Assembly: GCF_000027125.1 (NCBI RefSeq)
Contig: NC_017626.1
Origin: Escherichia coli 042
Lineage (GTDB): Bacteria > Pseudomonadota > Gammaproteobacteria > Enterobacterales > Enterobacteriaceae
Strand: one strand, 5' to 3'
DNA: 64,000 nucleotides
Below the pieces are notes generated by a model. That model saw only the letters and a list, made by a program, of their open reading frames with translations, did no database searches and had not been told where the DNA came from. Below are positions 3,626-49,541 of this stretch, piece after piece. How positions within the stretch are numbered: position 1 is the stretch's first letter; each line of letters opens with the position of its first letter. Position numbers and translations under genes: made by a program.

Positions 3626-4226
3626 TTCACAGGTGTTTTTTCCCATCCTGTGGTTTCCTTGGCGTTTTCTAGGTTTTTTCAGATAGTTGCATTTTTTAAA
3701 AAGCATCCTAAGTTCGATCTCAGTGTCTATCTGGGGCCTATTTCTGTCCCATATATGCCCCAAAAAAACTCCCCAACAGATAAGTAGTTTTTTCATGGAT
3801 TTATGCGTAAAATCAAGAACGGCTGGAAATCATTCAATACTCACACTATCGAAAAATTTACCAGCCAACCGCAGCACGTTCTTGCATAAGGCGTGTCTGC
3901 GTTTTTTCAACTATTCAGATACATCACTCCCATCACAGTCATTCCTCCGCATCAAAGGCATATAGGCTATATCACCTTGATATTTTTCTTTTTCAGATAA
4001 AAACTGTTATCTATGTATACTTTTAAACCCAATCCGTGTAGAGTCTCTGCATAAGATAGTTTGCAGTTGCCGCTTCAGCTTGCGCCATAAACCGCCTGAT
4101 TTTTGCTGCCACCTGCTAGCATTCCTGTATACCTGAAACGACAATGTTTATCTACGAACTTTAAAAACACCCAAGATAAAAATTGTCAACTATATCATAT
4201 ATAACACATTACTAATTCGAGGCTAT

Positions 4227-34679: not shown

Positions 34680-35432
34680 TTATCTCGTCACCTTCCTCAA
34701 TTGCGCTTCCGCGTATGCTTCTTCCTGCCAGCACTTTGTTACCAGTTTACCAATGACGTCCGCATACCCCTTATACCACTGATAATCGGTCAGGTCTGGT
34801 ACCAGCTTCTGGACATGACGTCGTGCCAGCGTGGTCGGTAAACGACTAAACCGGTTTCCATTACAACGCCCACAAATCTTATATACCGGTACGCCATGAA
34901 ACCGGGTTCTTTTTTCATCCAGAACAATCCCTTTACCCTTACACCCTCTGCACGCTGTGCTGGCTTCGCCCTTACCATGGCAATGCTGACATAGTTCCTT
35001 CACCCATTCTTCCTTGATTACAGATTCCCCGCGTCTGTAGTGTTTCACCACTTCGCGCAATACATTATAAAATCCCGTACCTGAACAATGCTCACAGCGA
35101 GCCTTACTTGCCGCAGACCTGGAGTAATCAGCAAAGGCAAAACTCACGAGGTAAGGAATAATCTGTAACCGGATTTCTTCACTCAATTTGTTCAATGTCG
35201 GGTTATCCAGTGCCATCGCGTAATTTAGCAGGCCTTCAATCGCAAACTGAGGGTCCTGAACACCAACTTTTGCCAGAAATAAGGCCAACCCAAGTGGTGC
35301 TTTCGACTGCACCATCCCCTGCGCTGCCATTACATCCGTAATTGTTAAACAACCGGTGCCTGTCGCTGGAGCGTCATCGCTCAATTTTGGAGATTTTGGG
35401 GAGTAATATTTTGGTAAGGCTTCAAGGTTCAT
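34680..35432 (-). CDS. quuQ: late-gene antiterminator Q
   Basis: ORF 34680..35462; start chosen at MNLEALPKYYSPK... (250 aa); Cys-rich zinc-binding region; synteny. Confidence 0.85.
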   Translation of the reverse strand: MNLEALPKYYSPKSPKLSDDAPATGTGCLTITDVMAAQGMVQSKAPLGLALFLAKVGVQDPQFAIEGLLNYAMALDNPTLNKLSEEIRLQIIPYLVSFAFADYSRSAASKARCEHCSGTGFYNVLREVVKHYRRGESVIKEEWVKELCQHCHGKGEASTACRGCKGKGIVLDEKRTRFHGVPVYKICGRCNGNRFSRLPTTLARRHVQKLVPDLTDYQWYKGYADVIGKLVTKCWQEEAYAEAQLRKVTR

Positions 35433-35445
35433 GCTCGTTCTCCAC

Positions 35446-36534
35446 TTACGCCAGTACGCCAATTGCCAGCGCGCGATCGATAAAACGAAATATCAGCTCC
35501 AGTTGGGAGCCATACTTATCTTCAAATGCCACTGTATCCGTATGCAGCTCGTTGTGATGCTTTCTGCACAAAGGCAACACAAAGAGATCATGTGCTTTTG
35601 TTCCCATTCCGCCCTGCCCGTGACCAATCAGATGATGCGGATCGTCGGCTGGCATACCGCAGCAAGCACACGGCTGTGTCTTAACCCAACGTGTGTATTT
35701 CTCCTTAACCCAGCGGCGACGTTTAGGCAGCTTCATGAAAGATTCCGGAGACTCTGGATCAACGGTGATGCTTACCACCGTCTTTTCCTGTGGTGATTTT
35801 TGTTGCTGGTGGGCGTAAGGCAACGGTGCAAGATTTTTTGTGCGTTGTTTCAATATGCTGGTGGCGGTCTGCTCTCCCGGTACGATGTCGCTTTCGCGGT
35901 ACACCGAGCAGATTTTTTCCGCTGGTAATCCCAGCGAACGACGCGATACAGCCTCAGGTAGTGCATCCACCACCTGATTGCAGACCGCCCACCAGGATAA
36001 TTCAGCCAAAGATAATTCCCGCTCCTGCGTACCGCTTATTGCGTGACGGATGACGTCAATCACCCATGCTGTCAGATTTTGTTGAGCAAGCAGCTCCAGT
36101 GATTCCGATGTCTGGTCACGCAGTTGGTTGTCGCAGTGCCAGCACAACACCATTGCGCCGGTACCATAACGGTGAATGACTGTTTCAGTGTGATGGTAAT
36201 CGCCATTAGGCCACTGGCAGGATGTAACATGACGTAATAGCCAGTCGGACAATGCGCCAACGCCGCCAGCAGCACGAATCACCCGTTCGTTACTAAAAAA
36301 CGGCAGCAATGTTTTGTCTTCCGCCAGCGGCTGGCGAACGGCAGGAACGACTCCGGATGGCAGATTACGCATGCTTTTTGGTTCCGGTTCCACCAGCACT
36401 CGAGGATTATGAAATATCTGTATGGATTCACGGCCCGGCTTAAGGACCACCAGCCCAAGCTCAGGCACCAGAACAGGTCTAAGTAATACCCGCACGTTAC
36501 CTCCAGATCCGTTGCTGGAAAGTGCGGGACGCAC
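35446..36534 (-). CDS. ydfU: DUF968-family prophage protein YdfU
   Basis: 362-aa ORF with C-terminal HNH-like Cys/His cluster (CACCGMPADDPHHLIGHG...CRKHHNELH); synteny. Confidence 0.75.
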   Translation of the reverse strand: MRPALSSNGSGGNVRVLLRPVLVPELGLVVLKPGRESIQIFHNPRVLVEPEPKSMRNLPSGVVPAVRQPLAEDKTLLPFFSNERVIRAAGGVGALSDWLLRHVTSCQWPNGDYHHTETVIHRYGTGAMVLCWHCDNQLRDQTSESLELLAQQNLTAWVIDVIRHAISGTQERELSLAELSWWAVCNQVVDALPEAVSRRSLGLPAEKICSVYRESDIVPGEQTATSILKQRTKNLAPLPYAHQQQKSPQEKTVVSITVDPESPESFMKLPKRRRWVKEKYTRWVKTQPCACCGMPADDPHHLIGHGQGGMGTKAHDLFVLPLCRKHHNELHTDTVAFEDKYGSQLELIFRFIDRALAIGVLA

Positions 36535-36775
36535 GTGGTGGGCGTTCGGAATAAGGCAGCCTGACAGAGATTATCCAGTGCCGATAGTCGAGACTGAGAG
36601 CTTTCTTAACCTCGAACCCGCGCCTGCGGTAAGAATGAATCAGCCATTCGGCCTGTTCTGCAGTGCATGGAGGGTGCTGGAACCATTCAGACTTGAATGC
36701 GTGAGAATACCGCCCGTGCGTGCAGGCAAGAACGGGCGAATTATCAGAATTGTAATATTTTGCGTTGCGTGCCAT
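36497..36775 (-). CDS. rem: small prophage protein Rem
   Basis: 92-aa ORF; position between ydfU and hokD as in Qin; start uncertain. Confidence 0.5.
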   Translation of the reverse strand: MARNAKYYNSDNSPVLACTHGRYSHAFKSEWFQHPPCTAEQAEWLIHSYRRRGFEVKKALSLDYRHWIISVRLPYSERPPRASRTFQQRIWR

Positions 36776-36841
36776 CGGTTTTCTCCGGTGGCACGGTGTT
36801 ACTCAGCGGGAGTTCAGCCCCGCGCAAGATTGTAGATGAGT

Positions 36842-37093
36842 TTATTCTCCTGAAAAAGCAGAAAAGCCAGCTTTTATTCCGATCTCTTTCAATGCCTGTA
36901 ATGAAGTGACAAACTCACCTTCGCGCAAGATAAATCCGTCCGTGACCCGAGCATCCACAAAATTAATTAACGCAGCCCCATTCTTTCGCAAACACATAAT
37001 GCGGTAATGACTAACAAGATTTCCATTTTCAACGCACACAGCATAGAGGCCATCTTCACAAAAAATTTTACGCAGTTCTTCGATGTTCATCAT
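36842..37093 (-). CDS. hypothetical 83-aa protein
   Basis: ORF MMNIEELRKIFCEDGLYAVCVENGNLVSHYRIMCLRKNGAALINFVDARVTDGFILREGEF...; between the relBEF terminator and rem. Confidence 0.4.
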   Translation of the reverse strand: MMNIEELRKIFCEDGLYAVCVENGNLVSHYRIMCLRKNGAALINFVDARVTDGFILREGEFVTSLQALKEIGIKAGFSAFSGE

Positions 37094-37214
37094 CAGAATC
37101 CTTCCGGATAATTAGCTCTCCCCTTTAAGGGACCATCCCTCTTATCCCTGCGCGCTACTTAAGTATTTTTGATTCTATTCCGGCACCGTCCAGAACTTCA
37201 AACGCGTTGAAAAT

Positions 37215-37245
37215 AAAAACAAAAACCCGCCGAAGCGGGTTAAGT
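37215..37245 (-). terminator. rho-independent terminator of the relB-relE-hokD operon
   Basis: Minus-strand hairpin aacccgcttcggcgggtt followed by TTTGTTTTTATTTTC. Confidence 0.6.
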
Positions 37246-37309
37246 GCGGGTGCGTTGAGGATGCCTGCCACATCAGAGGTGGCGAGGGATTTCTCCCCCG
37301 CCGGGTCTC

Positions 37310-37465
37310 TTACTCCTCAGGTTCGTAAGCTGTGAAGACAGCGACCTCCGTCTGGCCGGTTCGGATTCGTACCTCGCAGAGGTCTTTCCTCGTTACCAGT
37401 GCCGTCACTATGACGGTTAAACAGATGACGATCAGGGCGATTAACATCGCCTTTTGCTGCTTCAT
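37310..37465 (-). CDS. hokD: type I toxin HokD (RelF), 51 aa
   Basis: Manual translation MKQQKAMLIALIVICLTVIVTALVTRKDLCEVRIRTGQTEVAVFTAYEPEE; below ORF-track cutoff. Confidence 0.85.
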   Translation of the reverse strand: MKQQKAMLIALIVICLTVIVTALVTRKDLCEVRIRTGQTEVAVFTAYEPEE

Positions 37466-37536
37466 AGCCTGCTTCTCCTGTCAACGCAAAGCAGAAGTGT
37501 CACCTTCGGTGCGAAACAGAGATGTCATGCTTTGGT

Positions 37537-37824
37537 TCAGAGAATGCGTTTGACCGCCTCGCTATATACTTCCGAGCGTTCTCTTTTCCCAACAGAAATC
37601 ACGAAAACGACAACTTTCTCGTCTATAACCTGGTATACAAGGCGATAGCCTGAAGACCGGAGCTTAATCTTGTAACAATCAGGCATACCACGGAGCTTGT
37701 TTGCTTCAATCCGGGGTGACTCAAGTACTTCAACCAGCTTCTTTTTCAACTGTTCACGTACCGTCGAGCCCAGCTTTCGCCATTCCTTTAGTGCCCGCTC
37801 GTCAAAATCCAGAAAATACGCCAT
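37537..37824 (-). CDS. relE: type II toxin RelE (mRNA interferase)
   Basis: 95-aa ORF MAYFLDFDERALKEWRKLGSTVREQLKKKL... Confidence 0.9.
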   Translation of the reverse strand: MAYFLDFDERALKEWRKLGSTVREQLKKKLVEVLESPRIEANKLRGMPDCYKIKLRSSGYRLVYQVIDEKVVVFVISVGKRERSEVYSEAVKRIL

Positions 37825-38063
37825 CAGAGTTCATCCAGCGTCACACGTACTGGCTTAGGATTACGAAGCCGTTCTTTCACTATCTCCACAAGTTCAGCAT
37901 CTTCATCACTCAGGAGTGTCTGTTTGAACGGCAAGCGTTCATTGTCAGCGATATACTCGAGCATGAGACGAAGCGCTTCAGAAGGAGTTACACCCATTTT
38001 TTCAAGCGCGGCGTAAGAACGCGCTTTAAGTTCATCGTCAATACGCAGGTTAATGCTACCCAT
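37824..38063 (-). CDS. relB: type II antitoxin RelB
   Basis: 79-aa ORF MGSINLRIDDELKARSYAALEKMGVTPSEALRLML...; stop overlaps relE start. Confidence 0.9.
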   Translation of the reverse strand: MGSINLRIDDELKARSYAALEKMGVTPSEALRLMLEYIADNERLPFKQTLLSDEDAELVEIVKERLRNPKPVRVTLDEL

Positions 38064-38087
38064 GTCTTACACCTCTTGTAATTACAA

Positions 38088-38393
38088 ATGTCATTACAAG
38101 TATCGCACTACAACATGCTTAGGGCAAGTCACGAAGGAAGTCAGAAAGTAGTCGTAAGAACGGTGATCACTGTCCGCTTTGTGCCAGGAGCAGCCATTGC
38201 TAAGTCCATCCTGTATTGTGCAGGTCAGCTCGTTTTTAAAGAGTCCGGCCATCATCTTACTGGTACAGACACCATATACTTTGTGACGGTCAGGCTACAT
38301 ATGCACAACTCAACTTATTCATCTATTTTTTGCTTTAGCATGTCAGTGTTGCTTTCTCGTCGGCGGGTGAGCGGTGACCTGACCTGTCGATAA
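38088..38393 (+). CDS. ydfV: possible YdfV-like ORF (101 aa), weakly supported
   Basis: Length and position between relB and flxA match K-12 ydfV; composition not strongly protein-like. Confidence 0.3.
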   Translation: MSLQVSHYNMLRASHEGSQKVVVRTVITVRFVPGAAIAKSILYCAGQLVFKESGHHLTGTDTIYFVTVRLHMHNSTYSSIFCFSMSVLLSRRRVSGDLTCR

Positions 38394-38595
38394 AGGAACG
38401 TAACACGTTTTATGCAACACCCGCATGCGGCAGAAAATTATTGCCGAACGTTTACCCCTGTCAACAAGCTTTACTTTCTGAGGCGCGCCAGCCCGCGAGG
38501 AAAACAATCTGAACATCAAACAATTAATGACACAAGAAATACGATTAAAGATTTTTTTGTGCATGCCGATAGTGCTTTTTTAAAAGGAGAAATCT

Positions 38596-38928
38596 ATGTC
38601 TGTCACAATTCAGGGAAATACCTCAACCGTTATTTCAAACAACTCCGCCCCGGAAGGAACATCAGAAATAGCCAAAATCACAAGACAAATTCAGGTGCTG
38701 ACTGAAAAGCTTGGGAAAATCTCATCGTAAGAGGGGATGACGACACAGCAGAAAAAAGAAATGGCTGCATTGGTACAGAAGCAAATTGAAAGCCTCTGGG
38801 CTCAACTGGAGCAGTTGTTAAGGCAGCAGGCAGAGAAAAAGAATGAAGACGCGACAGTTCAGCCTGATAAAAAAGAAGAGAAAAAAGACGATACAAATAC
38901 CGCTGGCACCATTGATATTTACGTCTAA
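38596..38928 (+). pseudogene. flxA: FlxA-like protein interrupted by in-frame TAA at codon 45
   Basis: MSVTIQGNTSTVISNNSAPEGTSEIAKITRQIQVLTEKLGKISS, stop, EG, then ORF-track 38737..38928 MTTQQKKEMAALVQ... in the same frame. Confidence 0.7.
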
Positions 38929-38942
38929 GTGACAGCCGTATT

Positions 38943-38968
38943 GTGGCCCTCATCGGGCCACTTTTCGC
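38943..38968 (+). terminator. hairpin plus T-run after flxA
   Basis: tggccctcatcgggcca stem followed by CTTTTCG. Confidence 0.5.
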
Positions 38969-39299
38969 CATCAGCCTTTTCTTTAAAGACATATTATCTT
39001 TGTATCATTTCTGATAGTTAACATTACAAGATATAAGTAATGGACGCACTCCCAATTAGTCTATTTAAATCGCCACGAGTTTAACTGACAACCCATGATC
39101 AATTATGAATTGCAACTATTTCTGTAGTCACTTTTGTGGGGACAGTCCACAAAACTGCCAACTTCCGCTTCTTGCTCTTAGCGGACATTAGCATAGGCTA
39201 TTTACCATAACGCCTCATTACGCGCACCGCCCAGACTGACTCAGCGCGTTTCTGGCATATCCCCGGTAAAACAAGTAACAAACCACCCGAAAATGAACA

Positions 39300-40760
39300 C
39301 CAGAAACGCGACTTAAGAATCTACCCTATGAATGGATATGCACTCAACCGAATCGATCTTGGTTTCAATCTTTTTTATCGGGATCAGGCTTCTTTTTAGG
39401 TAACTTCGGGGGCTTAACTTGCTGATGACTTTGCGTTCGGCGCGTAAGCCAGGGATGGTCAGCTTTAGGTTTAACATAGTATTTTGAGCGTAAATCAATA
39501 CGGGCATTATCCACTCGTTCATGGACACTCTTTTCATCATCCAGTGGTATAGGCTCCGGGCCATCAACATACTTTTCCCAGCCCAGCGCTTTCCCGTCAT
39601 ACAGAACGTTAATTTCACCGTCAAAGTTCTCGCATACAGTAACAACCGAATGCCTAAGTCGATATCCCCGGCCCTCACTGCGTACCTGAAACGCACTGCT
39701 TTTGTACTGGAAAGTGAGATTTTTAGACAGAACGCGCTTCGCCTGTAGGCTGAAGATATAACCCAGTTCCTCTTCAGAATGGTGCACATCAAGATGAGCA
39801 TTATCAGTAGTACGAGGCGACGTAGCGAACCGGTTGTTATAGGCTTCAATAAAGGTCGGCAACCATGCATTTGCTGTTTCAATATCACTGATATTCTGAA
39901 GCCGCATTTCTTTGACCAGCCTGTCCTGTAGTGTCTGATTGGCGCGCTCTACCCGCCCTTTTGCCTGCGGGCTGTTGGCATGGATTGGCTCGATGCCCAG
40001 TGTCTTTATCGCACGAGTGAACTGGGTCAGCTCACCTTCCCGCTCTGGGTTATTTACCCTGAATATACTGTGTCTATCAGAGTAGAGAGCGAGCGGTACG
40101 CCATGATCATTAAGGTAACCCCGGAGGGTTTCCATGTAAGCCCGGGTTGTTTCAGCAGGCACAAAACGCAACGCCATCAACGCACTGGTGGCATCATCAA
40201 TGAAAACGATCAGTGTACATCTGGGGCCTCGATTTTCAAACCAGTCATGAGGTGAGCCATCAATCTGGATCAGTTCACCGTAAGATGGTCGTCGCATGCG
40301 GCGTTGATATATACGGGCAATTTTACGACGGCGTTCACGCCATAACCCCTCTTCTACCATCCACTTTCTGAGAGTTTCAACGGATAAAGATAAACCGTGT
40401 ATCTCGCGCAATTTTTCGCACGCAAACGTAGGTCCAAAATCAGCGTAACGGCCTTTGAGGAGTGAAATTACTGTTGCTCTGAATTCAGTAGAAAAGGAAT
40501 TATTAGGACGCTTTCCACGTCGGTGGGAAACCAGACCAGAAGGCCCTTCATTTCTATACCGTTGCACCAGACGTTTAACCTGCCGAATAGAAATGCCAAT
40601 GCGTGCCGCAGCTTGTTCCTGAATAATCTGAAGTCGGTGGAGTTCCTTATGACTCATCGTAACAGTCTCTTTGATCATGAAAAATCCCCCAGAGAATTGT
40701 CTGGGGACATTTTAGAATGGTTCAAAGGGGACATTACAGCTTGGTGTTAACAATAGCCTG
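39300..40760. mobile_element. insertion sequence (boundaries approximate) carrying a DDE transposase
   Basis: Single 437-aa transposase gene in a ~1.45 kb block that interrupts prophage gene order between flxA and the replication genes; terminal inverted repeats not resolved by eye. Confidence 0.5.
39365..40678 (-). CDS. DDE (rve-fold) transposase with N-terminal HTH, IS481/ISNCY-like
   Basis: 437-aa ORF MIKETVTMSHKELHRLQIIQEQAAARIGISIRQVKRLVQRYRNEG... with integrase-core-like region. Confidence 0.8.
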   Translation of the reverse strand: MIKETVTMSHKELHRLQIIQEQAAARIGISIRQVKRLVQRYRNEGPSGLVSHRRGKRPNNSFSTEFRATVISLLKGRYADFGPTFACEKLREIHGLSLSVETLRKWMVEEGLWRERRRKIARIYQRRMRRPSYGELIQIDGSPHDWFENRGPRCTLIVFIDDATSALMALRFVPAETTRAYMETLRGYLNDHGVPLALYSDRHSIFRVNNPEREGELTQFTRAIKTLGIEPIHANSPQAKGRVERANQTLQDRLVKEMRLQNISDIETANAWLPTFIEAYNNRFATSPRTTDNAHLDVHHSEEELGYIFSLQAKRVLSKNLTFQYKSSAFQVRSEGRGYRLRHSVVTVCENFDGEINVLYDGKALGWEKYVDGPEPIPLDDEKSVHERVDNARIDLRSKYYVKPKADHPWLTRRTQSHQQVKPPKLPKKKPDPDKKD

Positions 40761-41012
40761 CTTCTCCGTGCCTTTCGGCACGTAAGAGGCTAACCTACAT
40801 GTGTCTAGCATGAAATTGGCCTCAGATTAATGTTAAGCGTCTTGCAGGACGCGTAATGTTAACTGGGGCTTTTCTCTATCTGCCGTTGGTGTCCATGCCC
40901 GAGGCAGATAGCCTCAAGCACCCGCAGTCATTCTACTTAACTAAGATTTCCCCGCAAACCGTTTTTGTCCAGCACAGTAAATATCCAACTAAACCAATGG
41001 AGTTCGCTGTAT

Positions 41013-41231
41013 TTACCGCCAGTATTCAATGCACATGACCGCCATGAACACCCCTAAAAAAAGGGCATTTATATATCCAAATATTAATATCAAAACATCA
41101 ACTTTTTCCATATACCTTGCTGTGAAGATGATGGGCATACATGATGCGAACAACCAGAACGCAACAAACAAAAACTGCAATGCGTTTTTCATTATTCCTC
41201 CTACAATCAATGTGCAATTACATTTAAACAC
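41013..41231 (-). CDS. hypothetical small membrane protein (two predicted TM helices)
   Basis: 72-aa ORF ...MKNALQFLFVAFWLFASCMPIIFTARYMEKVDVLILIFGYINALFLGVFMAVMCIEYWR. Confidence 0.35.
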   Translation of the reverse strand: MFKCNCTLIVGGIMKNALQFLFVAFWLFASCMPIIFTARYMEKVDVLILIFGYINALFLGVFMAVMCIEYWR

Positions 41232-42344
41232 ACCTCAATTTGGCCGGACATATAAATATCTAAACCAGAAAAAATCACTTACATAGCGTTACAAACTCTT
41301 TAGTCTAAAGGTTCATCGTAAAACATTCCCCATACTTATCAGTCCGTTCCGCGCCAGGTAGCTCATTGCCTTATCTGGCAACCTGTAATCAGGTTTCCGC
41401 TTTTTCAGTTGGCTGGTCGTTTAACCGACATAGTTAATCCATTAATCTAGTTGCCGGATGTTGGTGGATTTTCGCGTTTTAGTTGTTCATAAAAGTGCAC
41501 AGCTTTAACCAGTTCTTCTGATGTAACTGGGACTGGTGAGGCAGTGAATAAGGCCTGAATTTGATAGTTCGGCCTGTCGTTACAATCCTCTTTTTTCGGT
41601 ACATATTTCCAGTCACCAGACCACTACTTCCCCTGAAAGTCCGTAACGCCTTTTTTCACGTAGCGATATCGCCATGCCACTGGTTTTGCTTGCCCCGCCG
41701 TTTCATGCCCTTCCTGATAATTAATCTCGCTCATTCATCGCCCCACTCATCACAATATGCTTCGACCGGAGTTTTTCCCGCTTCATAGTCATCACGCTAG
41801 GATTCGACATCAGCAGCACTTCCACCGCGTAACTCACCATAGTCCATTAATAGTTCATCCCGCTCTTCAAAACTGATGTTATATTTAGCTGAACAAAAAT
41901 CAGCCACTTTGTTCTTCCTCATCGTCTTTTATTTCGTGGTATGAGTAATTGCAGTAGTTAAAGAAAATTTCTTATGCTCCGTCATGAATTTCCTCAGGTG
42001 TTGCGTCATCGTCCACTTCGAATACATCCTCAAAATCTCCACCAGCTATTCCCGTTTCAATAATAATTTTGAACTTTCGCATTTCACTACCGCCCTTTCG
42101 GGCGGCCTCCTGATGTTCTGAGGGTGCAGAAATCCATCCGGTTAAGGATTAAATTTTATTTACAGAACTGAATTTAATTATTCAGATATACGTATCTGTA
42201 GCCTTACGAATCTACTCACTGGATGCCTCTTTCATAAAAATAATCCAGTGGGTTTTATCGTTTTTTCCCTGTTCGTTGACAGATAACAGGTTTTCTGTCT
42301 GTCAGTGCCAGAATCTGGCTTACCGGTATTTGCGTTTCATTCCA

Positions 42345-42701
42345 TTAAAAAATCAGAACGCCGTGCGGCCTCAACACCCGAAAGGCTTCTTTAAATCTCT
42401 GTCGCGAATCATCACGCCAGGCATCTTTATTCAGCCGTCCATATTTCTTTCCCATCCAGGCGTTATCACCAACACTCTCAAGATGCGGAGGGTCTAATAC
42501 AACCATCGAAAAAGATGCGTCTGCAAATGATAATGCACGAAAATCTGCGATAATGTCAGGGCTGATAATCAAGCGTCTCCCATTGCGTAATGTGTATCCT
42601 TCTTTTCTGATATCGCTGAATATCGCCCGTTCGTCAGACTTATCGAACCAGAACATGCGGCTGCCACAGCACATATCAAGAATGGTTGCCGGTGCACTCA
42701 C
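42345..42701 (-). pseudogene. SAM-dependent DNA methyltransferase-like ORF, apparently truncated (118 aa)
   Basis: Motif I-like DMCCGSRMFWFD and motif IV-like VVLDPPH; ends at TAA after ...HGVLIF, frame continues protein-like (WNETQIPVSQILALTDRKPVICQRTGKKR). Confidence 0.45.
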
Positions 42702-43120
42702 TGCGCCACGTCCTGAAAATTACCCTGATAGAAAGCCAGTATGCGCTGCATAACTTCGCTCTTCCGGCACTCGCGACAGATTATGTTTAGGCGACTGTCG
42801 TAGCGACGTATTTCTCCGTCAGGTGATGACCAGATAAGGTCCGGATCAACCACAGCAGGTTTCTTCACCTTTGCCCTCGAGAGTTTTTTGCGGGCGTTTT
42901 GCCAGTCCTTACGCGCCTGTTCAGAGGGGAATAACCCGTAGCCGGAGTTGTATACATCGCCACTGGCTACCAGCTCTCTGGCAAGAACGCTCATCAGATA
43001 TCTAGTCGCACCTGTTTTAGCTTCCAGTTGCCGTAACGTCTCACGGCCGCTCTGGCGCACGAGTTCCACCACCTGCCATTTAATTTTTTCCCGCTCTTCT
43101 TGTGTAAAAACTTTTGCCAC
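42698..43120 (-). CDS. hypothetical prophage early protein (140 aa)
   Basis: ORF in the replication module downstream of the initiator gene; start overlaps methyltransferase-like ORF. Confidence 0.5.
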   Translation of the reverse strand: MAKVFTQEEREKIKWQVVELVRQSGRETLRQLEAKTGATRYLMSVLARELVASGDVYNSGYGLFPSEQARKDWQNARKKLSRAKVKKPAVVDPDLIWSSPDGEIRRYDSRLNIICRECRKSEVMQRILAFYQGNFQDVAQ

Positions 43121-43160
43121 AAGTCCCCCTTAAAATTACCTCATGACCTGAAATCAACAC

Positions 43161-44180
43161 TTATCCTCTGAAACCAGGCGGAATTTCTGTATCCGGTTCA
43201 GAAATATGATTAACACAACGCTGTACAGGTGAACGTCCCAGGCGGATGACCAGTTCGTCCCATTTTTCGCGGAGCTTTGACGGGCTCATGATGTTTTTGA
43301 CCCAGAATGGATCTCGCTGAACCCGACCAAACATTTCGCAAATTTGTCTGTGGCTTCTGCCATCCAGCATCCGCATTGTGCGCACGTCATTGGCCCAGGC
43401 AGTCCAGTTAGGCTCTTTTGGTCGCATGATCTCGCCATCATCACTGGCTGCCTGTTCGTAGAGACCCACGATCCGCCCCCAGATCCACTGCGCACACGCC
43501 AAATCCTCCCTGCTACCCCACTGGCGTTTTTTCGCACTAAACACAACCGCGTCGGAGTTCCGGGTTAAAAAATCCTGTTCAGTCGTCTGCGGGTCCGGTT
43601 GCGAAGCTTCCGGACGAAAAGTGTTTTTATTCTCTGTAGTAGTCTCTGTTGTATTCTCTGTAAGATCATCAGGCCATTTTGACCCGATGACATTGGGTCG
43701 TTTTGAACCAATGGAGCGTTTCATTTTGACCTCTTCCATCGTGTCATTTTGACCTGATGGAGCGGCGCATTTTGAACCGATGGATTCGCTCAATTTGCCA
43801 CCATCTAAAAGCTCGCTCCCATAGTTGATCGTGTAGAAATTGGTCATATCGCGCTTTGATTTATTGAGCTTTTCACAACGCAAAAGCCCCAGCGTTTTCA
43901 GACTTGCAAACGCGCGCTTTAACGTTGACTCTGACCAGAATGGGAACTGTTCCAGCCATTGTTCCGTTGTGTTATAAATCCAGCGAACACCATCACATTC
44001 CATGCCGGAGTTGGTATCTCTCAACCAGTAGTGCAGTTGTTGCAAAACAATGGCTTCGTTTAAGCCAATTTTCATTGCCAGCTGCGTGTTTATAACCAGT
44101 GGGCGTTCAGCAAAAAGAAGGCTCATAATTCCATCCAGCTTTTTGTTGGTATTGCTGTCGATACGCAAGTTTGAAAGCAA
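43161..44180 (-). CDS. putative phage replication initiator (lambda O position) with internal iteron origin
   Basis: 339-aa ORF at the position of lambda O relative to the Cro-like gene; contains a block of direct repeats inside the coding sequence. Confidence 0.55.
   Translation of the reverse strand: MLSNLRIDSNTNKKLDGIMSLLFAERPLVINTQLAMKIGLNEAIVLQQLHYWLRDTNSGMECDGVRWIYNTTEQWLEQFPFWSESTLKRAFASLKTLGLLRCEKLNKSKRDMTNFYTINYGSELLDGGKLSESIGSKCAAPSGQNDTMEEVKMKRSIGSKRPNVIGSKWPDDLTENTTETTTENKNTFRPEASQPDPQTTEQDFLTRNSDAVVFSAKKRQWGSREDLACAQWIWGRIVGLYEQAASDDGEIMRPKEPNWTAWANDVRTMRMLDGRSHRQICEMFGRVQRDPFWVKNIMSPSKLREKWDELVIRLGRSPVQRCVNHISEPDTEIPPGFRG
43675..43790. repeat. putative replication origin: ~5 direct repeats (iterons) of cattttga(a/c)c...atgga, period ~23 bp
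   Basis: Repeats cattttgacccgatgacattgggtcg / ttttgaaccaatggagcg / cattttgacctcttccatcg / cattttgacctgatggagcgg / cattttgaaccgatggattcg inside the initiator gene. Confidence 0.5.
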
Positions 44181-44628
44181 TTGCTTTTTCTATAAGTTCG
44201 TCAGTTTCACGATCCACTACGGCAGGATCAGCAAAAAGCAGTCCGGACTCCACCACATCGCCATATTCTTTGTTTAACCCGGCGATCATGCACGTGATGC
44301 TTTTTCCGTCAGTAATTTCACGATACAACCTGAAATCATTAATCCGGATAGCCTCCATAATTGCAGGCACTAGCGCCGTGAACTTTTCACGCTTATCCCT
44401 GGTGTCGATAGCCTTCCAGCGTTCAAATATCTTCACTCGATTAACGCCAAGCGCTCGCTGATCAATCGCGCCACCTTCATATGTGACACGCTGAACATCG
44501 ATGTTCGGGCGCTCTTTCAAAGCCCAGAATGCTTCAGTGATTAATATCGTCGCCTGCTCCTGTGTCATTCCTGGTCGACATATCCAGGCATCCAGAGCCT
44601 CACGAGCCTGTTCAGGAGTGATTTTCAT
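44107..44628 (-). CDS. YdaT-like prophage regulatory protein (cII position)
   Basis: 173-aa ORF directly downstream of the Cro-like dicC; pattern ...IFERWKAIDTRDKREKFTALVPAIMEAI... resembles YdaT-family proteins. Confidence 0.45.
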   Translation of the reverse strand: MKITPEQAREALDAWICRPGMTQEQATILITEAFWALKERPNIDVQRVTYEGGAIDQRALGVNRVKIFERWKAIDTRDKREKFTALVPAIMEAIRINDFRLYREITDGKSITCMIAGLNKEYGDVVESGLLFADPAVVDRETDELIEKAIAFKLAYRQQYQQKAGWNYEPSFC

Positions 44629-44842
44629 TGTTCAACCGCCCCGCCCGCTTCGTCTTACGATATTCATCATAAACTTTGGGATCATACTGAAGCTCCCCGC
44701 CAGATGCCTCCTGTAGACGCATCGCGCGACCTTCGGGAACTAAATCCCCTTTCCAGCTATAAAGCGAAGCCAAACGAATACCTGCTGCTTGTGCAAGTTT
44801 TGTTTTTGAACCGAAATACAAAAGAGCGTCAGTTTTAAGCAT
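44612..44842 (-). CDS. dicC: Cro-like regulator DicC
   Basis: 76-aa ORF MLKTDALLYFGSKTKLAQAAGIRLASLYSWKGD... divergent from dicA. Confidence 0.85.
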   Translation of the reverse strand: MLKTDALLYFGSKTKLAQAAGIRLASLYSWKGDLVPEGRAMRLQEASGGELQYDPKVYDEYRKTKRAGRLNNENHS

Positions 44843-44925
44843 TTAAAACACCTTTATTGTTAGCCATAACTAACAAGATAGATGTTAACAAAAACATAGT
44901 CAATACGATTTAGCATTAGCTAACT
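44843..44925. promoter_or_regulatory. dicA-dicC divergent promoter/operator region
   Basis: Intergenic region with palindromic operator-like elements (tgttagccataactaaca; ttagcattagctaa). Confidence 0.55.
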
Positions 44926-45333
44926 ATGGAAACAAAAAATTTAACTATCGGCGAACGCATCAGGTATCGTCGGAAAAACCTCAAACACACCCAAAGGTCT
45001 CTTGCTAAAGCCCTGAAAATCTCCCATGTGTCTGTATCACAATGGGAACGGGGTGATAGTGAACCTACAGGGAAGAACCTTTTTGCCCTCAGCAAAGTAT
45101 TGCAATGCTCACCAACATGGATTCTATTTGGCGATGAAGACAAGCAACCAACACCACCTGTTGAGAAGCCAGTTGCCTTATCCCCCAAAGAACTAGAGCT
45201 CCTTGAGCTGTTTAATGCACTGCCAGAATCAGAACAGGATACCCAGCTCGCCGAAATGCGAGCTCGAGTAAAAAACTTCAATAAACTCTTTGAAGAATTA
45301 CTAAAAGCCCGTCAGCGGACAAATAAAAGATAA
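44926..45333 (+). CDS. dicA: XRE-family repressor DicA
   Basis: 135-aa ORF METKNLTIGERIRYRRKNLKHTQRSLAKALKISHVSVSQWERG... (HTH). Confidence 0.9.
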   Translation: METKNLTIGERIRYRRKNLKHTQRSLAKALKISHVSVSQWERGDSEPTGKNLFALSKVLQCSPTWILFGDEDKQPTPPVEKPVALSPKELELLELFNALPESEQDTQLAEMRARVKNFNKLFEELLKARQRTNKR

Positions 45334-45499
45334 CATCATCAATGAGTTATCTTTTACCACATCAATTATGTTAGCTATAGCATACAAAATCACTTGACCG
45401 ATATGTTAGTCATGGCTAATCTTGTTTGCATCAACACACCGCACGGTGTTCTCAGCAAACAGTTCCGCTACCCCAGCGTTAAGGGGAAATGAGGTCAGC

Positions 45500-45655
45500 A
45501 TGGATACTATCGATCTTGGCAACAACGAATCTCTGGTGTACGGCGTGTTTCCAAACCAGGACGGCACGTTCACCGCAATGACGTATACCAAAAGCAAAAC
45601 GTTTAAAACCGAAAATGGTGCCCGTCGCTGGCTGGAAAGAAACTCAGGTGAGTGA
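45500..45655 (+). CDS. ydfA: small protein YdfA (51 aa)
   Basis: Internal start MDTIDLGNNESLVYGVFPNQDG... within ORF 45422..45655. Confidence 0.8.
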   Translation: MDTIDLGNNESLVYGVFPNQDGTFTAMTYTKSKTFKTENGARRWLERNSGE

Positions 45656-45656
45656 T

Positions 45657-45785
45657 ATGGATTTCGACACAATCATGGAAAAGGCTTACGAAGAATACTT
45701 CGAAGGCCTTGCCGAAGGCGAAGAAGCTCTCAGCTTCAGTGAGTTTAAACAGGCGCTTTCCAGTTCGGCAAAATCTAACGGCTGA
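45657..45785 (+). CDS. ydfB: small protein YdfB (42 aa)
   Basis: Manual translation MDFDTIMEKAYEEYFEGLAEGEEALSFSEFKQALSSSAKSNG; below ORF-track cutoff. Confidence 0.75.
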   Translation: MDFDTIMEKAYEEYFEGLAEGEEALSFSEFKQALSSSAKSNG

Positions 45786-45814
45786 TAAGCGAAACAGCAC
45801 CGCGAGGAATCAGT

Positions 45815-46033
45815 ATGCAGAAACGAGAACCCGTCATCATCGCGCCAGACTATACCGATGATGAACTTTATGAGTGGATGCGCCAGAAAATTAATGCAGC
45901 GCAGGATCTGAAATGGGCTAATGAAGCCAGGGCTAAGCAGGCTGAAAATCTGTCCGCTCTGGAGCAGGATATCACCAATCTGGAAAAAGCAGCGGCATTA
46001 AGCATTGCCAGAATGATTACATACCCGCGTTAG
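45815..46033 (+). CDS. ydfC: small protein YdfC (72 aa)
   Basis: ORF MQKREPVIIAPDYTDDELYEWMRQKINAAQDLKW... Confidence 0.8.
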   Translation: MQKREPVIIAPDYTDDELYEWMRQKINAAQDLKWANEARAKQAENLSALEQDITNLEKAAALSIARMITYPR

Positions 46034-46373
46034 TAGCTAATCAACAAAGCTAAGGTTAGTAATTAAGGAGTTCTCCACGGGTGAGGTGGAGTGCGTGCGC
46101 CGGACACGGGTGCGCATCCGGAACTGACAGTTTACTGAAAGGATATTTCCCTGAAAAGTCAGACCATAACGCGAAAGCGCACGGCGAGGTAGCTGGTTCA
46201 TAGATAGCCTGTCGTTAAATTTTCGTCGACCGTGCGCTTCCGGTTGTGGCAACCCGCGAAATGGCGCGGCGGTAAGTATGGCGGGGTTATTCCTTCCCCG
46301 TTGAGGACACCGGGTTGTCAGGTTGACCATACGCTTAAGTGACAACCCCGCTGCAACGCCCTCTGTTATCAAT

Positions 46374-46432
46374 TTTCTGGTGACGTTTGGCGGTATCAGT
46401 TTTACTCCGTGACTGCTCTGCCGCCCTTTTTA
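46374..46432 (+). ncRNA. dicF: DicF small regulatory RNA (cell-division inhibitor, ftsZ antisense)
   Basis: tttctggtgacgtttggcggtatcagttttactccgtgactgctctgccgccc followed by TTTTT; matches DicF as I remember it; lies between ydfC and dicB. Confidence 0.8.
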
Positions 46433-46600
46433 AAGTGAATTTTGTGATGTGGTGAATGCGGCTGAGCGCACGCGGAACAGTTAAAACCAAAAACAGTGTT
46501 ATGGGTGGATTCTCTGTATCCGGCGTTAATTGTTAACTGGTTAACGTCACCTGGAGGCACCAGGCACTGCATCACAAAATTCATTGTTGAGGACGCGATA

Positions 46601-46789
46601 ATGAAAACGTTATTACCAAACGTTAATACGTCTGAAGGTTGTTTTGAAATTGGTGTCACTATCAGTAACCCAGTATTTACTGAAGATGCCATTAACAAGA
46701 GAAAACAAGAACGGGAGCTATTAAATAAAATATGCATTGTTTCAATGCTGGCTCGTTTACGTCTGATGCCAAAAGGATGTGCACAATGA
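46601..46789 (+). CDS. dicB: cell-division inhibitor DicB (62 aa)
   Basis: Internal start MKTLLPNVNTSEGCFEIGVTISNPVF... within ORF 46496..46789. Confidence 0.85.
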   Translation: MKTLLPNVNTSEGCFEIGVTISNPVFTEDAINKRKQERELLNKICIVSMLARLRLMPKGCAQ

Positions 46790-46977
46790 ATTCAGCATTT
46801 GTGCTTGTTCTGACAGTTTTTCTTGTTTCCGGAGAGCCAGTTGATATTGCAGTCAGTGTTCACAGGACAATGCAGGAGTGTATGACTGCAGCAACCGAAC
46901 AGAAAATTCCCGGTAACTGTTACCCGGTCGATAAAGTTATTCACCAGGATAATATCGAAATCCCGGCAGGTCTTTAA
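46786..46977 (+). CDS. ydfD: small lysis-associated protein YdfD (63 aa)
   Basis: Start MNSAFVLVLTVFLVSGEPV... overlapping dicB stop; hydrophobic N-terminus. Confidence 0.8.
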   Translation: MNSAFVLVLTVFLVSGEPVDIAVSVHRTMQECMTAATEQKIPGNCYPVDKVIHQDNIEIPAGL

Positions 46978-47069
46978 AACAGTTCCGTAATAAATATCCG
47001 GTTTCATTCTTATATGCCAGCAATGGCAGGGATTTGTTCATCCTTAAATCTGTCATGAGGTTAAAACAA

Positions 47070-49541
47070 ATGAGTAAAGTCTTTATTTGCGCCGCTATTC
47101 CTGACGAACTGGCAACAAGGGAAGAAGGCGCTGTGGCTGTAGCCACAGCCATTGAAGCTGGCGACGAACGCCGTGCTCGAGCAAAATTTCACTGGCAATT
47201 CCTGGAACATTATCCGGCTGCTCAGGACTGCGCTTATAAATTTATTGTCTGCGAGGATAAACCTGGCATACCCCGCCCTGCCCTCGATTCATGGGATGCT
47301 GAATATATGCAGGAAAACCGCTGGGATGAGGAGTCTGCTTCTTTTGTCCCGGTTGAGACTGAATCCGATCCGATGAACGTCACTTTTGACAAGCTGGCCC
47401 CTGAAGTACAGAACGCTGTCATGGTTAAGTTCGACACATGTGAAAACATCACCGTTGATATGGTTATTAGCGCACAGGAATTGTTGCAGGAAGACATGGC
47501 AACATTCGACGGACATATCGTTGAAGCGTTGATGAAAATGCCAGAAGTTAACGCCATGTATCCGGAGCTTAAGTTGCACGCCATTGGGTGGGTTAAGCAT
47601 AAATGTATTCCTGGTGCTAAATGGCCCGAAATTCAGGCAGAGATGCGCATCTGGAAAAAACGTCGCGAAGGTGAACGCAAGGAAACCGGAAAATACACGT
47701 CTGTTGTTGATCTCGCCCGCGCCAGAGCCAATCAACAGTACACTGAAAATTCAACAGGAAAAATCAGCCCGGTCATTGCTGCCATTCATCGCGAATACAA
47801 GCAGACATGGAAAACACTGGATGACGAACTGGCCTACGCTCTCTGGCCTAGTGATGTGGATGCCGGAAACATTGACGGCAGCATCCATCGCTGGGCAAAA
47901 AAAGAAGTTATCGACAACGACCGCGAAGACTGGAAGCGTATCTCGGCATCAATGCGCAAACAGCCTGATGCCCTTCGCTACGACCGCCAAACTATTTTTG
48001 GCCTTGTCCGTGAGCGTCCGATCGACATTCACAAAGATCCCGTAGCACTGAACAAATATATCTGCGAATACCTGACGACAAAGGGCGTGTTTGAGAATGA
48101 AGAAACAGACCTGGGCACTGTTGATGTTCTCCAGTCATCAGAAACACAAACTGATGCAGTGGAAACTGAGGTATCTGATATCCCAAAAAATGAAACCGCG
48201 CCGGAAGCTGAACCATCTGTAGAGCGTGAGGGGCCGTTCTATTTCCTCTTCGCAGATAAGGACGGAGAAAAATACGGTCGCGCAAACAAACTCTCTGGTC
48301 TGGATAAGGCACTGGCTGCTGGCGCCACTGAAATCACAAAAGAAGAATATTTTGCCCGAAAAAATGGCACATACACGGGCTTACCGCAAAATGTAGATAC
48401 CGCTGAAGATTCAGAACAACCAGAGCCGATAAAAGTTACCGCTGACGAAGTAAACAAAATTATGCAGGCAGCCAATATCAGCCAGCCTGACGCCGATAAG
48501 TTGCTTGCTGCATCACGTGGTGAATTTGTTGAAGGGATTAGTGACCCGAATGATCCGAAATGGGTTAAGGGGCTCCAGACCCGCGATTCTGTGAACCAGA
48601 ACCAGCATGAATCGGAACGGAACTACCAAAAAGCGGAACAAAACAGTCCAAATGCGTTACAAAACGAGCCAGAAACGAAACAGCCTGAACCAGTAGCGCA
48701 ACAGGAAGTGGAAAAAGTCTGCACCGCCTGCGGTCAGACCGGCGGCGGCAACTGCCCTGATTGTGGCGCGGTGATGGGCGACGCAACATACCAAGAAACA
48801 TTCGATGAAGAGTATCAGGTTGAAGTTCAGGAAGATGATCCGGAGGAAATGGAAGGCGCTGAACATCCACACAAGGAGAACACTGGCGGCAATCAGCATC
48901 ACAATAGCGATAATGAAACTGGCGAGACGGCAGATCACCCAATTAAGGTGAACGGTCATCACGAAATCACATCCACCAGCAGGACGTGTGACCATCTAAT
49001 GATCGACCTTGAAACCATGGGAAAAAATCCTGATGCCCCGATCATCTCAATAGGTGCAATATTTTTCGATCCGCAAACCGGAGATATGGGACCGGAATTT
49101 AGTAAGACTATCGATCTGGAAACTGCTGGCGGAGTCATTGATCGGGACACCATTAAATGGTGGCTTAAGCAATTACGCGAAGCGCAATCTGCCATTATGA
49201 CCGATGAAATCCCGTTAGATGATGCACTGTTACAATTGCGAGAATTTATCGACGAAAACTCCGGTGAATTTTTTGTTCAGGTTTGGGGAAATGGAGCCAA
49301 CTTCGACAACACGATTTTGCGCCGTTCATACGAACGGCAGGGGATCCCCTGCCCGTGGCGTTACTACAACGATCGCGATGTACGCACAATCGTTGAGCTG
49401 GGGAAAGCCATAGACTTCGATGCCAGAACGGCTATTCCATTCGAAGGTGAGCGCCATAATGCACTTGATGACGCCCGTTACCAGGCAAAATACGTTTCAG
49501 TTATCTGGCAAAAACTGATCCCGAGTCAGGCTGATTCTTAA
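47070..49541 (+). CDS. ydfE: YdfE-family prophage protein, full length, with central zinc ribbon and C-terminal DEDDh (DnaQ-like) 3'-5' exonuclease domain
   Basis: ORF 47034..49541; start chosen at MSKVFICAAIPDELATRE...; CxxC...CxxC (CTACGQTGGGNCPDCG); exonuclease motifs DLETMG, GANFDNTIL, HNALDDARYQA. Confidence 0.8.
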   Translation: MSKVFICAAIPDELATREEGAVAVATAIEAGDERRARAKFHWQFLEHYPAAQDCAYKFIVCEDKPGIPRPALDSWDAEYMQENRWDEESASFVPVETESDPMNVTFDKLAPEVQNAVMVKFDTCENITVDMVISAQELLQEDMATFDGHIVEALMKMPEVNAMYPELKLHAIGWVKHKCIPGAKWPEIQAEMRIWKKRREGERKETGKYTSVVDLARARANQQYTENSTGKISPVIAAIHREYKQTWKTLDDELAYALWPSDVDAGNIDGSIHRWAKKEVIDNDREDWKRISASMRKQPDALRYDRQTIFGLVRERPIDIHKDPVALNKYICEYLTTKGVFENEETDLGTVDVLQSSETQTDAVETEVSDIPKNETAPEAEPSVEREGPFYFLFADKDGEKYGRANKLSGLDKALAAGATEITKEEYFARKNGTYTGLPQNVDTAEDSEQPEPIKVTADEVNKIMQAANISQPDADKLLAASRGEFVEGISDPNDPKWVKGLQTRDSVNQNQHESERNYQKAEQNSPNALQNEPETKQPEPVAQQEVEKVCTACGQTGGGNCPDCGAVMGDATYQETFDEEYQVEVQEDDPEEMEGAEHPHKENTGGNQHHNSDNETGETADHPIKVNGHHEITSTSRTCDHLMIDLETMGKNPDAPIISIGAIFFDPQTGDMGPEFSKTIDLETAGGVIDRDTIKWWLKQLREAQSAIMTDEIPLDDALLQLREFIDENSGEFFVQVWGNGANFDNTILRRSYERQGIPCPWRYYNDRDVRTIVELGKAIDFDARTAIPFEGERHNALDDARYQAKYVSVIWQKLIPSQADS

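Follow-up and report, generated by a model that had tools for sequence, protein, structure and literature searches.

Premature stop codons and other lesions in the early genes of a Qin-type defective prophage of Escherichia coli, beside a mobile element

The locus and its prophage setting

Positions 41240 to 42701 of the window (the whole 64,000-nucleotide stretch of DNA analysed) are part of the early-right operon of a Qin-type defective lambdoid prophage of Escherichia coli. The early-right operon genes of this region all lie on the minus strand, and the stretch is flanked by replication genes on one side and by the antiterminator Q gene on the other. Qin markers around it include rem (36842-37093), the toxin ORF hokD (37310-37465), relE plus relB (37537-38063), flxA, dicC, dicA, and the DicF RNA (46375-46426; Rfam); the prophage also contains a YdaT/cII-like gene. 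Closer to the stretch are an IS1202/ISEsa1-family transposase gene (39365-40678), a DUF977 gene (42698-43120), and an O-like replication gene (43161-44180). The gene order in intact relatives (L003 and L004) is O, DUF977, the genes considered here, hok, ydfU, rusA, and Q.

Qin of K-12 MG1655 is the same prophage, with 99.9% identity over window positions 35001-39549 and 44349-47492, and has window positions 39550-44348 deleted. K-12 consequently lacks all five gene remnants described below, most of the transposase gene, the hok leader, the DUF977 gene, and the O-like gene. What is annotated in K-12 as ydfW is the 3′ end of the transposase ORF, while K-12 ydfX lies at the deletion joint.

A preliminary description, made from the sequence alone, had called 41240-42340 poor in ORFs. 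Indeed, the longest minus-strand ORFs there comprise 45, 41, 39, 37, 36, and 36 aa, and the ORFs of at least 60 aa in or at the stretch are all on the plus strand (41029-41286, 85 aa; 41561-41788, 75 aa; 42276-42497, 73 aa). Plus-strand ORFs (66 to 85 aa) gave no match to a Pfam or PHROG family, and their candidacy as genes was rejected in favor of antisense shadows. One of them is labelled "hornerin" in two phage records, a label that we consider spurious. Part of the ORF-poor appearance would be expected even with intact genes, because two of the genes encode only 60 and 58 aa in their natural form.

The same description had reported protein-like pieces, translated by hand, in different minus-strand frames. 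Its example peptide, DWKYVPKKEDCNDRPNYQIQALFTASPVPVTSEELVKAVHFYEQLKREN (DWKYVPKK...), occurs letter for letter in one minus-strand frame and comes from a PHROG 660 pseudogene. Profile matches identify the remnants as real coding sequence (DUF7167 Pfam, E = 3e-13; PHROG 1997, E = 2e-28; PHROG 519, E = 2e-11; PHROG 660, E = 9e-29). The pieces are thus protein-like as described, and their frames are those of three separate genes with overlapping ends, each with one in-frame stop. Multiple frameshifts as the cause of the different frames were discarded after codon-level alignment. The lesions are mostly nonsense codons, the only true frameshift being located in the methyltransferase gene.

Several other kinds of feature were sought. 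No structured RNA was matched in Rfam at E values up to 1 between 40924 and 46374, and predicted promoters and terminators were no more numerous in the stretch than in shuffled sequence. ARAGORN found no tRNA gene in the window, and reading of the stops by a suppressor tRNA or by recoding was accordingly rejected.

The methyltransferase pseudogene

A pseudogene of a small phage class I SAM-dependent methyltransferase (PHROG 954; ancestral length, 162 aa) occupies 42212-42701 on the minus strand. As previously described, its 118-aa ORF (42345-42701) ends at a TAA, and homology does go on beyond this stop, as judged by the PHROG 954 score and by intact phage proteins. The premature TAA (42345-42347) takes the place of codon 119, which is AAA (Lys119) in intact relatives. 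A 1-nucleotide insertion (GG to GGG, 42267-42269) shifts the frame 27 codons after the stop, and the ancestral stop is a TAG at 42212-42214. The repaired gene reads through to ...GKNDKTHWIIFMKEASSE, and reading through the premature stop increases the PHROG 954 score from 196.6 to 242.6 bits. Two intact phage proteins align across the stop, namely, QBP07693.1 of Klebsiella phage ST846-OXA48phi9.2 (160 aa, 82% identity) and gp30 of Erwinia phage vB_EhrS_49 (156 aa, 70% identity).

Intact relatives of the methyltransferase are 156 to 162 aa long, the closest from E. coli (P0001) having 162 aa and 88% identity. In a search of 1.84 billion representative sequences, most matches spanned query positions 5 to 158, and the best 120 of 6691 homologues were 133 to 279 aa long. 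The 133-aa homologue is 99% identical to the reconstructed sequence and therefore represents a truncated form of the same allele; likewise, a 118-aa member of the representative set (P0157, 97% identity) is a cluster of the truncated allele.

The 118-aa ORF keeps SAM-binding motif I (ILDMCCGS) and a motif IV-like DPPH. Among 80 diverse homologues, D9, C12, G13, and D70-P71-P72-H73 are invariant or nearly so, and all are present in the window ORF. K119, W120, P138, T150, F155, and K157, which are conserved in at least 90% of these homologues, all lie downstream of the stop. Phage methyltransferases of PHROG 954 share motif I, DPPH, and FKWNE, whereas the window copy ends early, at codon 119, and carries a frameshift. 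A complete domain (about 155 aa or more, with FKWNE and the last two strands of the sheet) is absent from the window ORF. In the AlphaFold model, the methyltransferase is predicted to adopt a compact class I fold (pLDDT, 94.6), with the strands at residues 138-144 and 150-156 falling after the stop. Given that motif I and DPPH are kept, some residual SAM binding by the 118-aa fragment is conceivable.

The nearest structural neighbor of the predicted fold in the PDB is the m2G tRNA methyltransferase Trm11 (6zxw_G; E = 3e-6, TM = 0.57), and no PDB entry was matched by the repaired methyltransferase at the sequence level. We note that "DNA methyltransferase" is a PHROG annotation label only, the nearest structure being that of a tRNA m2G methyltransferase.

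Annotation of this gene varies. The NCBI pipeline records it as "frameshifted; internal stop" in strains C41 and GF31 and as an intact 118-aa CDS in ATCC 8739, and many RefSeq genomes carry the 118-aa fragment as an intact protein entry, WP_001310834.1. This entry, named "class I SAM-dependent methyltransferase," calls for correction to the product of a truncated pseudogene.

The small-gene remnants

The next gene of the series is preceded by a conserved 104-bp intergenic module (42082-42185, minus strand), upstream of the DUF7167 gene. The module consists of AGGAGG, a 6-bp G+C hairpin with a GAAA loop (CCGCCC-GAAA-GGGCGG, 42091-42106), 7 nucleotides, and the ATG. It is conserved in five relatives (L003, L007, L008, L012, and L013) and precedes other genes in other prophages. 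Its fold z-score of -2.3 is only modestly better than those of shuffled sequences, and it has no match in Rfam.

The DUF7167 pseudogene (60 codons; 41900-42082, minus strand; PF23768, PHROG 1997) has an in-frame TAA at codon 37 (41972-41974), where intact homologues have AAA. With the stop masked, PF23768 is matched over its full length at 50 bits, against a curated cutoff of 24.4. Relative to the DUF7167 and PHROG 1997 families, the window copy is cut at codon 37; intact 60-aa homologues are found in L003, L007, and L012, against which pN/pS is 0.13 to 0.19. The NCBI pipeline marks this gene "internal stop."

Overlapping its end is the pseudogene of a 58-aa early gene (41731-41907, minus strand; PHROG 519). 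Its codon 37 is an in-frame TAG (41797-41799) in place of the TGG of intact homologues, and the start codon has changed from ATG to GTG at 41907. This 58-codon pseudogene carries no NCBI pipeline annotation in ATCC 8739, which leaves a gap in the annotation of the region.

The PHROG 660 pseudogene (41447-41734, minus strand) has an intact 119-aa form in phage vB_EcoS-689R5. The window copy has an in-frame TAG at codon 37 (41624-41626), where the intact form has CAG. It also differs at its 3′ end, where TSGN and a stop follow ...RENPP in place of the last 28 codons. The in-frame stop is also present in L003 and L007. In phage vB_EcoS-640R1, the gene is broken too, a 2-nucleotide insertion upstream giving a nonsense ORF of 85 aa. 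The PHROG 660 stop, common to the L007 prophage and phage 640R1, is older than the other stops. Between the window and L007, both of which carry the stop, there are one synonymous and six nonsynonymous differences, too few for a test of relaxed selection after inactivation. An additional 1-nucleotide deletion in GF31 points in the same direction as these counts.

Beyond the altered 3′ end lies a remnant of an Ea22-like coiled-coil gene (41313-41417, minus strand), which is 114 aa in vB_EcoS-689R5 and of which the last 34 codons and a TGA are left. In tblastn, 24 of the 34 residues are identical (E = 2e-15), and blastn gives 79% identity to L012 positions 3982-4086. The NCBI pipeline joins the PHROG 660 and Ea22-like remnants into one "frameshifted" pseudogene (41313-41734).

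In all three of the overlapping small genes (DUF7167, 58-aa, and PHROG 660), the premature stop falls at codon 37. The agreement looks non-random; we treat it as a coincidence because the three stops arose by three types of mutation and are of different ages.

Inactivation of the early genes

Taken together, these features make it very likely that 41240-42701 is a block of inactivated early genes of Qin in the position of the nin region. Five genes with intact counterparts in related lambdoid phages that are still active have been knocked out here. Single-base nonsense mutations hit four of them (the methyltransferase, DUF7167, 58-aa, and PHROG 660 genes), with the 1-nucleotide insertion as an additional hit in the methyltransferase gene, and an internal deletion, relative to the vB_EcoS-689R5 arrangement, fused the PHROG 660 gene to the tail of the Ea22-like gene. 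The block would then have been inherited vertically with the prophage, still collecting lesions.

The changes themselves and their distribution are directly visible in the genomes. Every gene of the stretch carries damage that its intact homologues in other prophages lack, in agreement with the decay proposed in the preliminary description. All of the lesions are common to ATCC 8739, C41, and GF31, the last of which has an extra 1-nucleotide deletion. The lost conserved residues and the lost core strands of the fold suggest that the fragments have no current protein function.

The pN/pS values of the small genes against intact homologues are 0.13 to 0.27, which points to real genes that were under purifying selection for most of their divergence, with the stops as late events. 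An argument that four nonsense codons fit a neutral divergence of 7% was dropped, since by these same values most of the divergence accumulated before the genes were inactivated. Against the proposed explanation we count the predominance of nonsense codons over indels (four of the five point lesions) and the shared stop position of the three small genes.

The description of the region as nin-like holds by position and fails by homology. Like the lambda nin region, which runs from P to Q, the stretch lies in the early-right interval between replication genes and rusA/Q and has small, overlapping, non-essential genes that are closely packed. Its content differs, comprising methyltransferase, DUF7167, PHROG 519, PHROG 660, and Ea22-like genes, and scans of the reconstructed products of 41240-42701 against Pfam, NCBIfam, and PHROG brought up no lambda Nin family.

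The decay might instead have been selected. Under such domestication, the early genes would be harmful to the lysogen and their knock-outs favored, not merely tolerated. The early nonsense codons do remove most of each product, and the prophage is retained with this region in many E. coli lineages. Breakage elsewhere points the same way: a homologue of the methyltransferase gene in an O157:H7 prophage has independent stops at W95 and E158, and even the deposited phage vB_EcoS-640R1 has a broken PHROG 660 gene. However, there is no evidence of toxicity for any of these proteins, K-12 deleted the whole block outright, and neutral decay of genes left unexpressed under DicA repression predicts the same pattern equally well. 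We therefore regard selected inactivation as unlikely.

It is more improbable still that the stretch holds intact, naturally short genes, below a 60-aa cutoff, together with a naturally short methyltransferase. The preliminary description had named this as its refuting scenario, and the homologues contradict it. The natural lengths of the 60- and 58-aa genes and the presence of the 118-aa ORF as an intact protein in many RefSeq genomes do agree with it. Nevertheless, the small genes stop at codon 37 whereas their intact homologues run to 58, 60, or 119 codons, in-frame homology persists beyond every stop, and the lengths of the best 120 methyltransferase homologues begin at 133 aa, with the truncated allele itself.

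Sequencing or assembly error, which the homopolymer run adjoining one lesion might have suggested, can be dismissed: the stretch is present, over at least 80% of its length, in about 370 complete E. coli genomes, 503 records match it at at least 99% identity, and the identical sequence occurs in hundreds of independent complete genomes, including those of ATCC 8739, W, IAI39, CE10, and UMNK88, as well as in the phage record PhiR42_1.

Inactivation of these early genes is an ordinary finding, namely, the decay of a defective prophage, and is largely flagged in RefSeq already, the NCBI pipeline marking most genes of the stretch as pseudogenes.

The neighboring transposon and its hok/sok target

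The preliminary description had placed an insertion sequence at about 39300-40760. A mobile element is present, but its extent is different; the interval is the transposase end of a 3274-bp IS1202-family transposon with passenger genes (37479-40752, minus strand). From an inverted repeat at 37479, the order is relE, relB, ydfV, flxA, the transposase gene (39365-40678), and an inverted repeat at 40752. The ends are TGT...ACA, with imperfect terminal inverted repeats that agree in 19 of 26 positions. On either side of the element stands the 15-bp sequence ATAGCCTGCTTCTCC, repeated exactly and in direct orientation (37464-37478 and 40753-40767). A simple 1.6-kb ISEsa1 ending near 39144 was rejected, as no terminal repeat occurs there and the best-matching one lies at 37479. 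A relative with the transposase alone occurs elsewhere, in L019. The transposase ORF (437 aa) matches HTH_32, HTH_29, and rve_3, is labelled ISEsa1 family by the NCBI pipeline, and is 9 codons shorter than in plasmid copies of the element, the full form (for example, in pSA20064858.1) having 446 aa. The flxA gene of the window transposon has a GAA-to-TAA change at 38728.

Published members of the IS1202 family fall into target-duplication classes of 5 to 6, 15 to 17, and 27 to 28 bp, their reported passenger genes are single hypothetical ORFs only, and ISEsa1 itself is 1609 bp long with no detectable target duplication and no target preference (PMC10132070; bioRxiv 10.1101/2022.12.17.520857). 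The window element has the features by which the family is recognized, that is, 5′-TGT terminal inverted repeats and a DDE transposase of 400 to 500 aa with an N-terminal HTH. With the 15- to 17-bp subgroup it shares TGT...ACA ends, an ISEsa1-family transposase, and a target duplication of 14 to 16 bp. It differs from ISEsa1 in its length (3274 to 3304 bp), in carrying relB, relE, ydfV, and flxA, and in inserting at the Shine-Dalgarno/ATG of hok-family genes.

In the window, the insertion site is a hok/sok locus. Homology to intact relatives stops at 40753, within the ATG of the hok gene, and what follows is an orphan hok/sok 5′ leader (40753-40923, minus strand) that extends from the 5′ end of the hok mRNA to the "AT" of the hok start codon and includes a truncated mok reading frame (40734-40811, minus strand). 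The leader matches Rfam RF01794 over its whole length (104 bits, E = 3e-23). Both the leader and the hokD ORF are colinear with the intact hok locus of L007, where they are contiguous. In contrast to such an intact locus, the leader, with its Sok target, and the hokD ORF are here 3274 bp apart, and hokD lies downstream of relBE. With the transposon between them, hokD is left without its own leader and Sok target.

Two plasmid copies and the window element are 99% identical, while the flanks are divergent. The copy on an IncI plasmid (L015) is in a Hok/Gef-family (pnd-type) locus, and that on an IncF plasmid (L016) is in an Enterobacter hok locus; each has its own 14- to 15-bp duplication of the local Shine-Dalgarno/ATG sequence. 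In the hok sense, the duplications read GGAGAAGCAGGCTAT in the window, TGGAGGGGCTATGAT in the IncI plasmid, and GGAGAAGAAGGCCA in the IncF plasmid. The transposon is thus found in different sites, each with its own target duplication, as expected of movement as a unit.

As a survey of insertion sites, the 26-nucleotide element end was searched against a collection of one genome per species and a metagenome collection, and the window and the two plasmid copies were added, giving 30 distinct flanks. Classes were assigned by a simple pattern classification, and the finer split was made by reading the sequences. Most flanks (17/30) were hok leaders with the Shine-Dalgarno/ATG at the junction, and in three more a hok leader was joined a few bases past another ATG. 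One flank had the hairpin and the 15-mer, three had the 15-mer beside another element end (a tandem arrangement), and six were unrelated.

From these observations, the adjoining element is probably a relBE/ydfV/flxA-carrying transposon of the IS1202 family with site specificity for the hok Shine-Dalgarno/start codon. Insertion into the hok/sok locus of Qin would have parted the hokD ORF from the leader and Sok target that belong to it. The classical gene order relB-relE-relF(hokD) of K-12 would be the result, and K-12 would later have deleted the very transposon end that reveals this origin.

In the searchable literature, a scope outside which older subscription papers on hokD fall, we found no description of relBE as transposon cargo, of hok as a transposon target, or of the truncation of hokD. 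Chromosomal hok genes were reportedly treated by Pedersen and Gerdes in 1999. If the proposal is confirmed and proves to be undescribed, it would explain the origin of one model toxin-antitoxin locus of E. coli K-12 and provide the ISEsa1 branch of the IS1202 family with its first target specificity. It would also mean that a type II toxin-antitoxin system travels as transposon cargo and that relBE enters type I toxin-antitoxin loci of plasmids and prophages and rewires them. The decayed stretch matters little by comparison; this by-product of its analysis matters more.

Finally, one ORF near the stretch is intact. It is a candidate for a hydrophobic peptide of 59 codons (41013-41192, minus strand), is preceded by the ribosome-binding sequence AGGAGGAATAATG, and has no NCBI pipeline annotation. 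Its 35 homologues are nearly all at least 74% identical and, where the source is named, all from E. coli or Shigella; the comparison with L003 and L007 gives one nonsynonymous and zero synonymous differences.

A hok/sok locus split by a transposon

The hok/sok locus of this defective lambdoid prophage is interrupted by a 3,274-bp IS1202-family transposon (37479-40752) that carries relE, relB, ydfV, and flxA as cargo. On one side lies the full-length leader of a hok mRNA, including a truncated mok frame (40753-40923, minus strand); this leader matches the Rfam "sok" model RF01794 at 104 bits, and the alignment to the model is in the hok sense and extends as far as the hok AUG. The leader is orphaned, as the hokD open reading frame (ORF) belonging to the other half of the locus (37310-37478) is 3.3 kb away. 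Comparison with the intact hok locus of a related prophage (L007) showed that the two halves abut exactly. The transposon is bounded by direct repeats representing a 15-bp target duplication (37464-37478 and 40753-40767), and its inverted repeats match at 19 of 26 positions.

Copies of the same transposon with 99% identity were found within divergent hok-family loci, both in metagenomes and on plasmids of the IncI and IncF types. At each copy, the hok Shine-Dalgarno/ATG region is duplicated over 14 to 16 bp, with a sequence particular to that copy. By pattern classification and reading of the flank sequences by eye, 21 of the 30 distinct transposon flanks were hok type, and at a further three the same 15-mer was found beside another element end. 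The loci L017 (positions 3060-3130) and L054 contain head-to-tail junctions in which the transposase-side end is followed by a 15-bp hok-type target copy and then by the relE-side end. This arrangement suggests that the duplicated target received another insertion or that the element exists in tandem or circular form.

Lesions in the transposon and deletion in K-12

Relative to the plasmid copies, the transposase ORF in the window lacks 27 bp at 40616, corresponding to nine codons (SINRHITQE) in the N-terminal helix-turn-helix region, and encodes 437 rather than 446 amino acids. The window copy of the transposon may be immobile. A GAA-to-TAA change (38728) interrupts flxA at codon 45, which is GAA in K-12 and in the plasmid copies; it is one of just two differences between the window and K-12 over 4.5 kb. 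A 4.8-kb segment corresponding to 39550-44348 is deleted in K-12 MG1655, which therefore lacks both the transposase-side transposon end and the hok leader. What is annotated in K-12 as ydfW is the 3' part of the transposase ORF, and ydfX sits at the deletion joint, in the YdaT/cII-like gene.

Small genes upstream of the hok leader

An intact 59-codon ORF encoding a hydrophobic peptide (41013-41192, minus strand), with the ribosome-binding sequence AGGAGGAATAATG, is absent from the NCBI pipeline annotation. We found 35 homologues, all from E. coli or Shigella where the source is named, and nearly all with at least 74% identity. In two phage records the opposite strand is annotated as "hornerin," which looks spurious.

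Three consecutive small genes (DUF7167, the 58-amino-acid PHROG 519 gene, and PHROG 660) each end prematurely at codon 37 (41972-41974, 41797-41799, and 41624-41626), so the stops are spaced by 175 and 173 nt. The mutation types and ages differ, and the shared position is treated here as a coincidence. A homologue of the neighboring methyltransferase pseudogene in a prophage of E. coli O157:H7 FRIK2069 (L008, positions 2646-3119) carries two different nonsense codons, at W95 and E158, and so lost its function in a separate event.

In a conserved 104-bp intergenic module (42082-42185, minus strand), a 6-bp G+C hairpin closed by a GAAA loop lies between an AGGAGG sequence and the DUF7167 ATG. 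In other E. coli prophages this module is found ahead of different genes (Ea22-like and DUF4014). The module could bring the ribosome-binding site nearer the start codon; alternatively, it could be the border between exchanged phage modules.

Subthreshold Rfam matches

Two weaker Rfam matches were also observed: an isrK-like match just downstream of hokD (37220-37301; 25 bits, below the threshold of 50) and an STnc100-like match directly after DicF (46424-46633; 34 bits, below the gathering score of 47).
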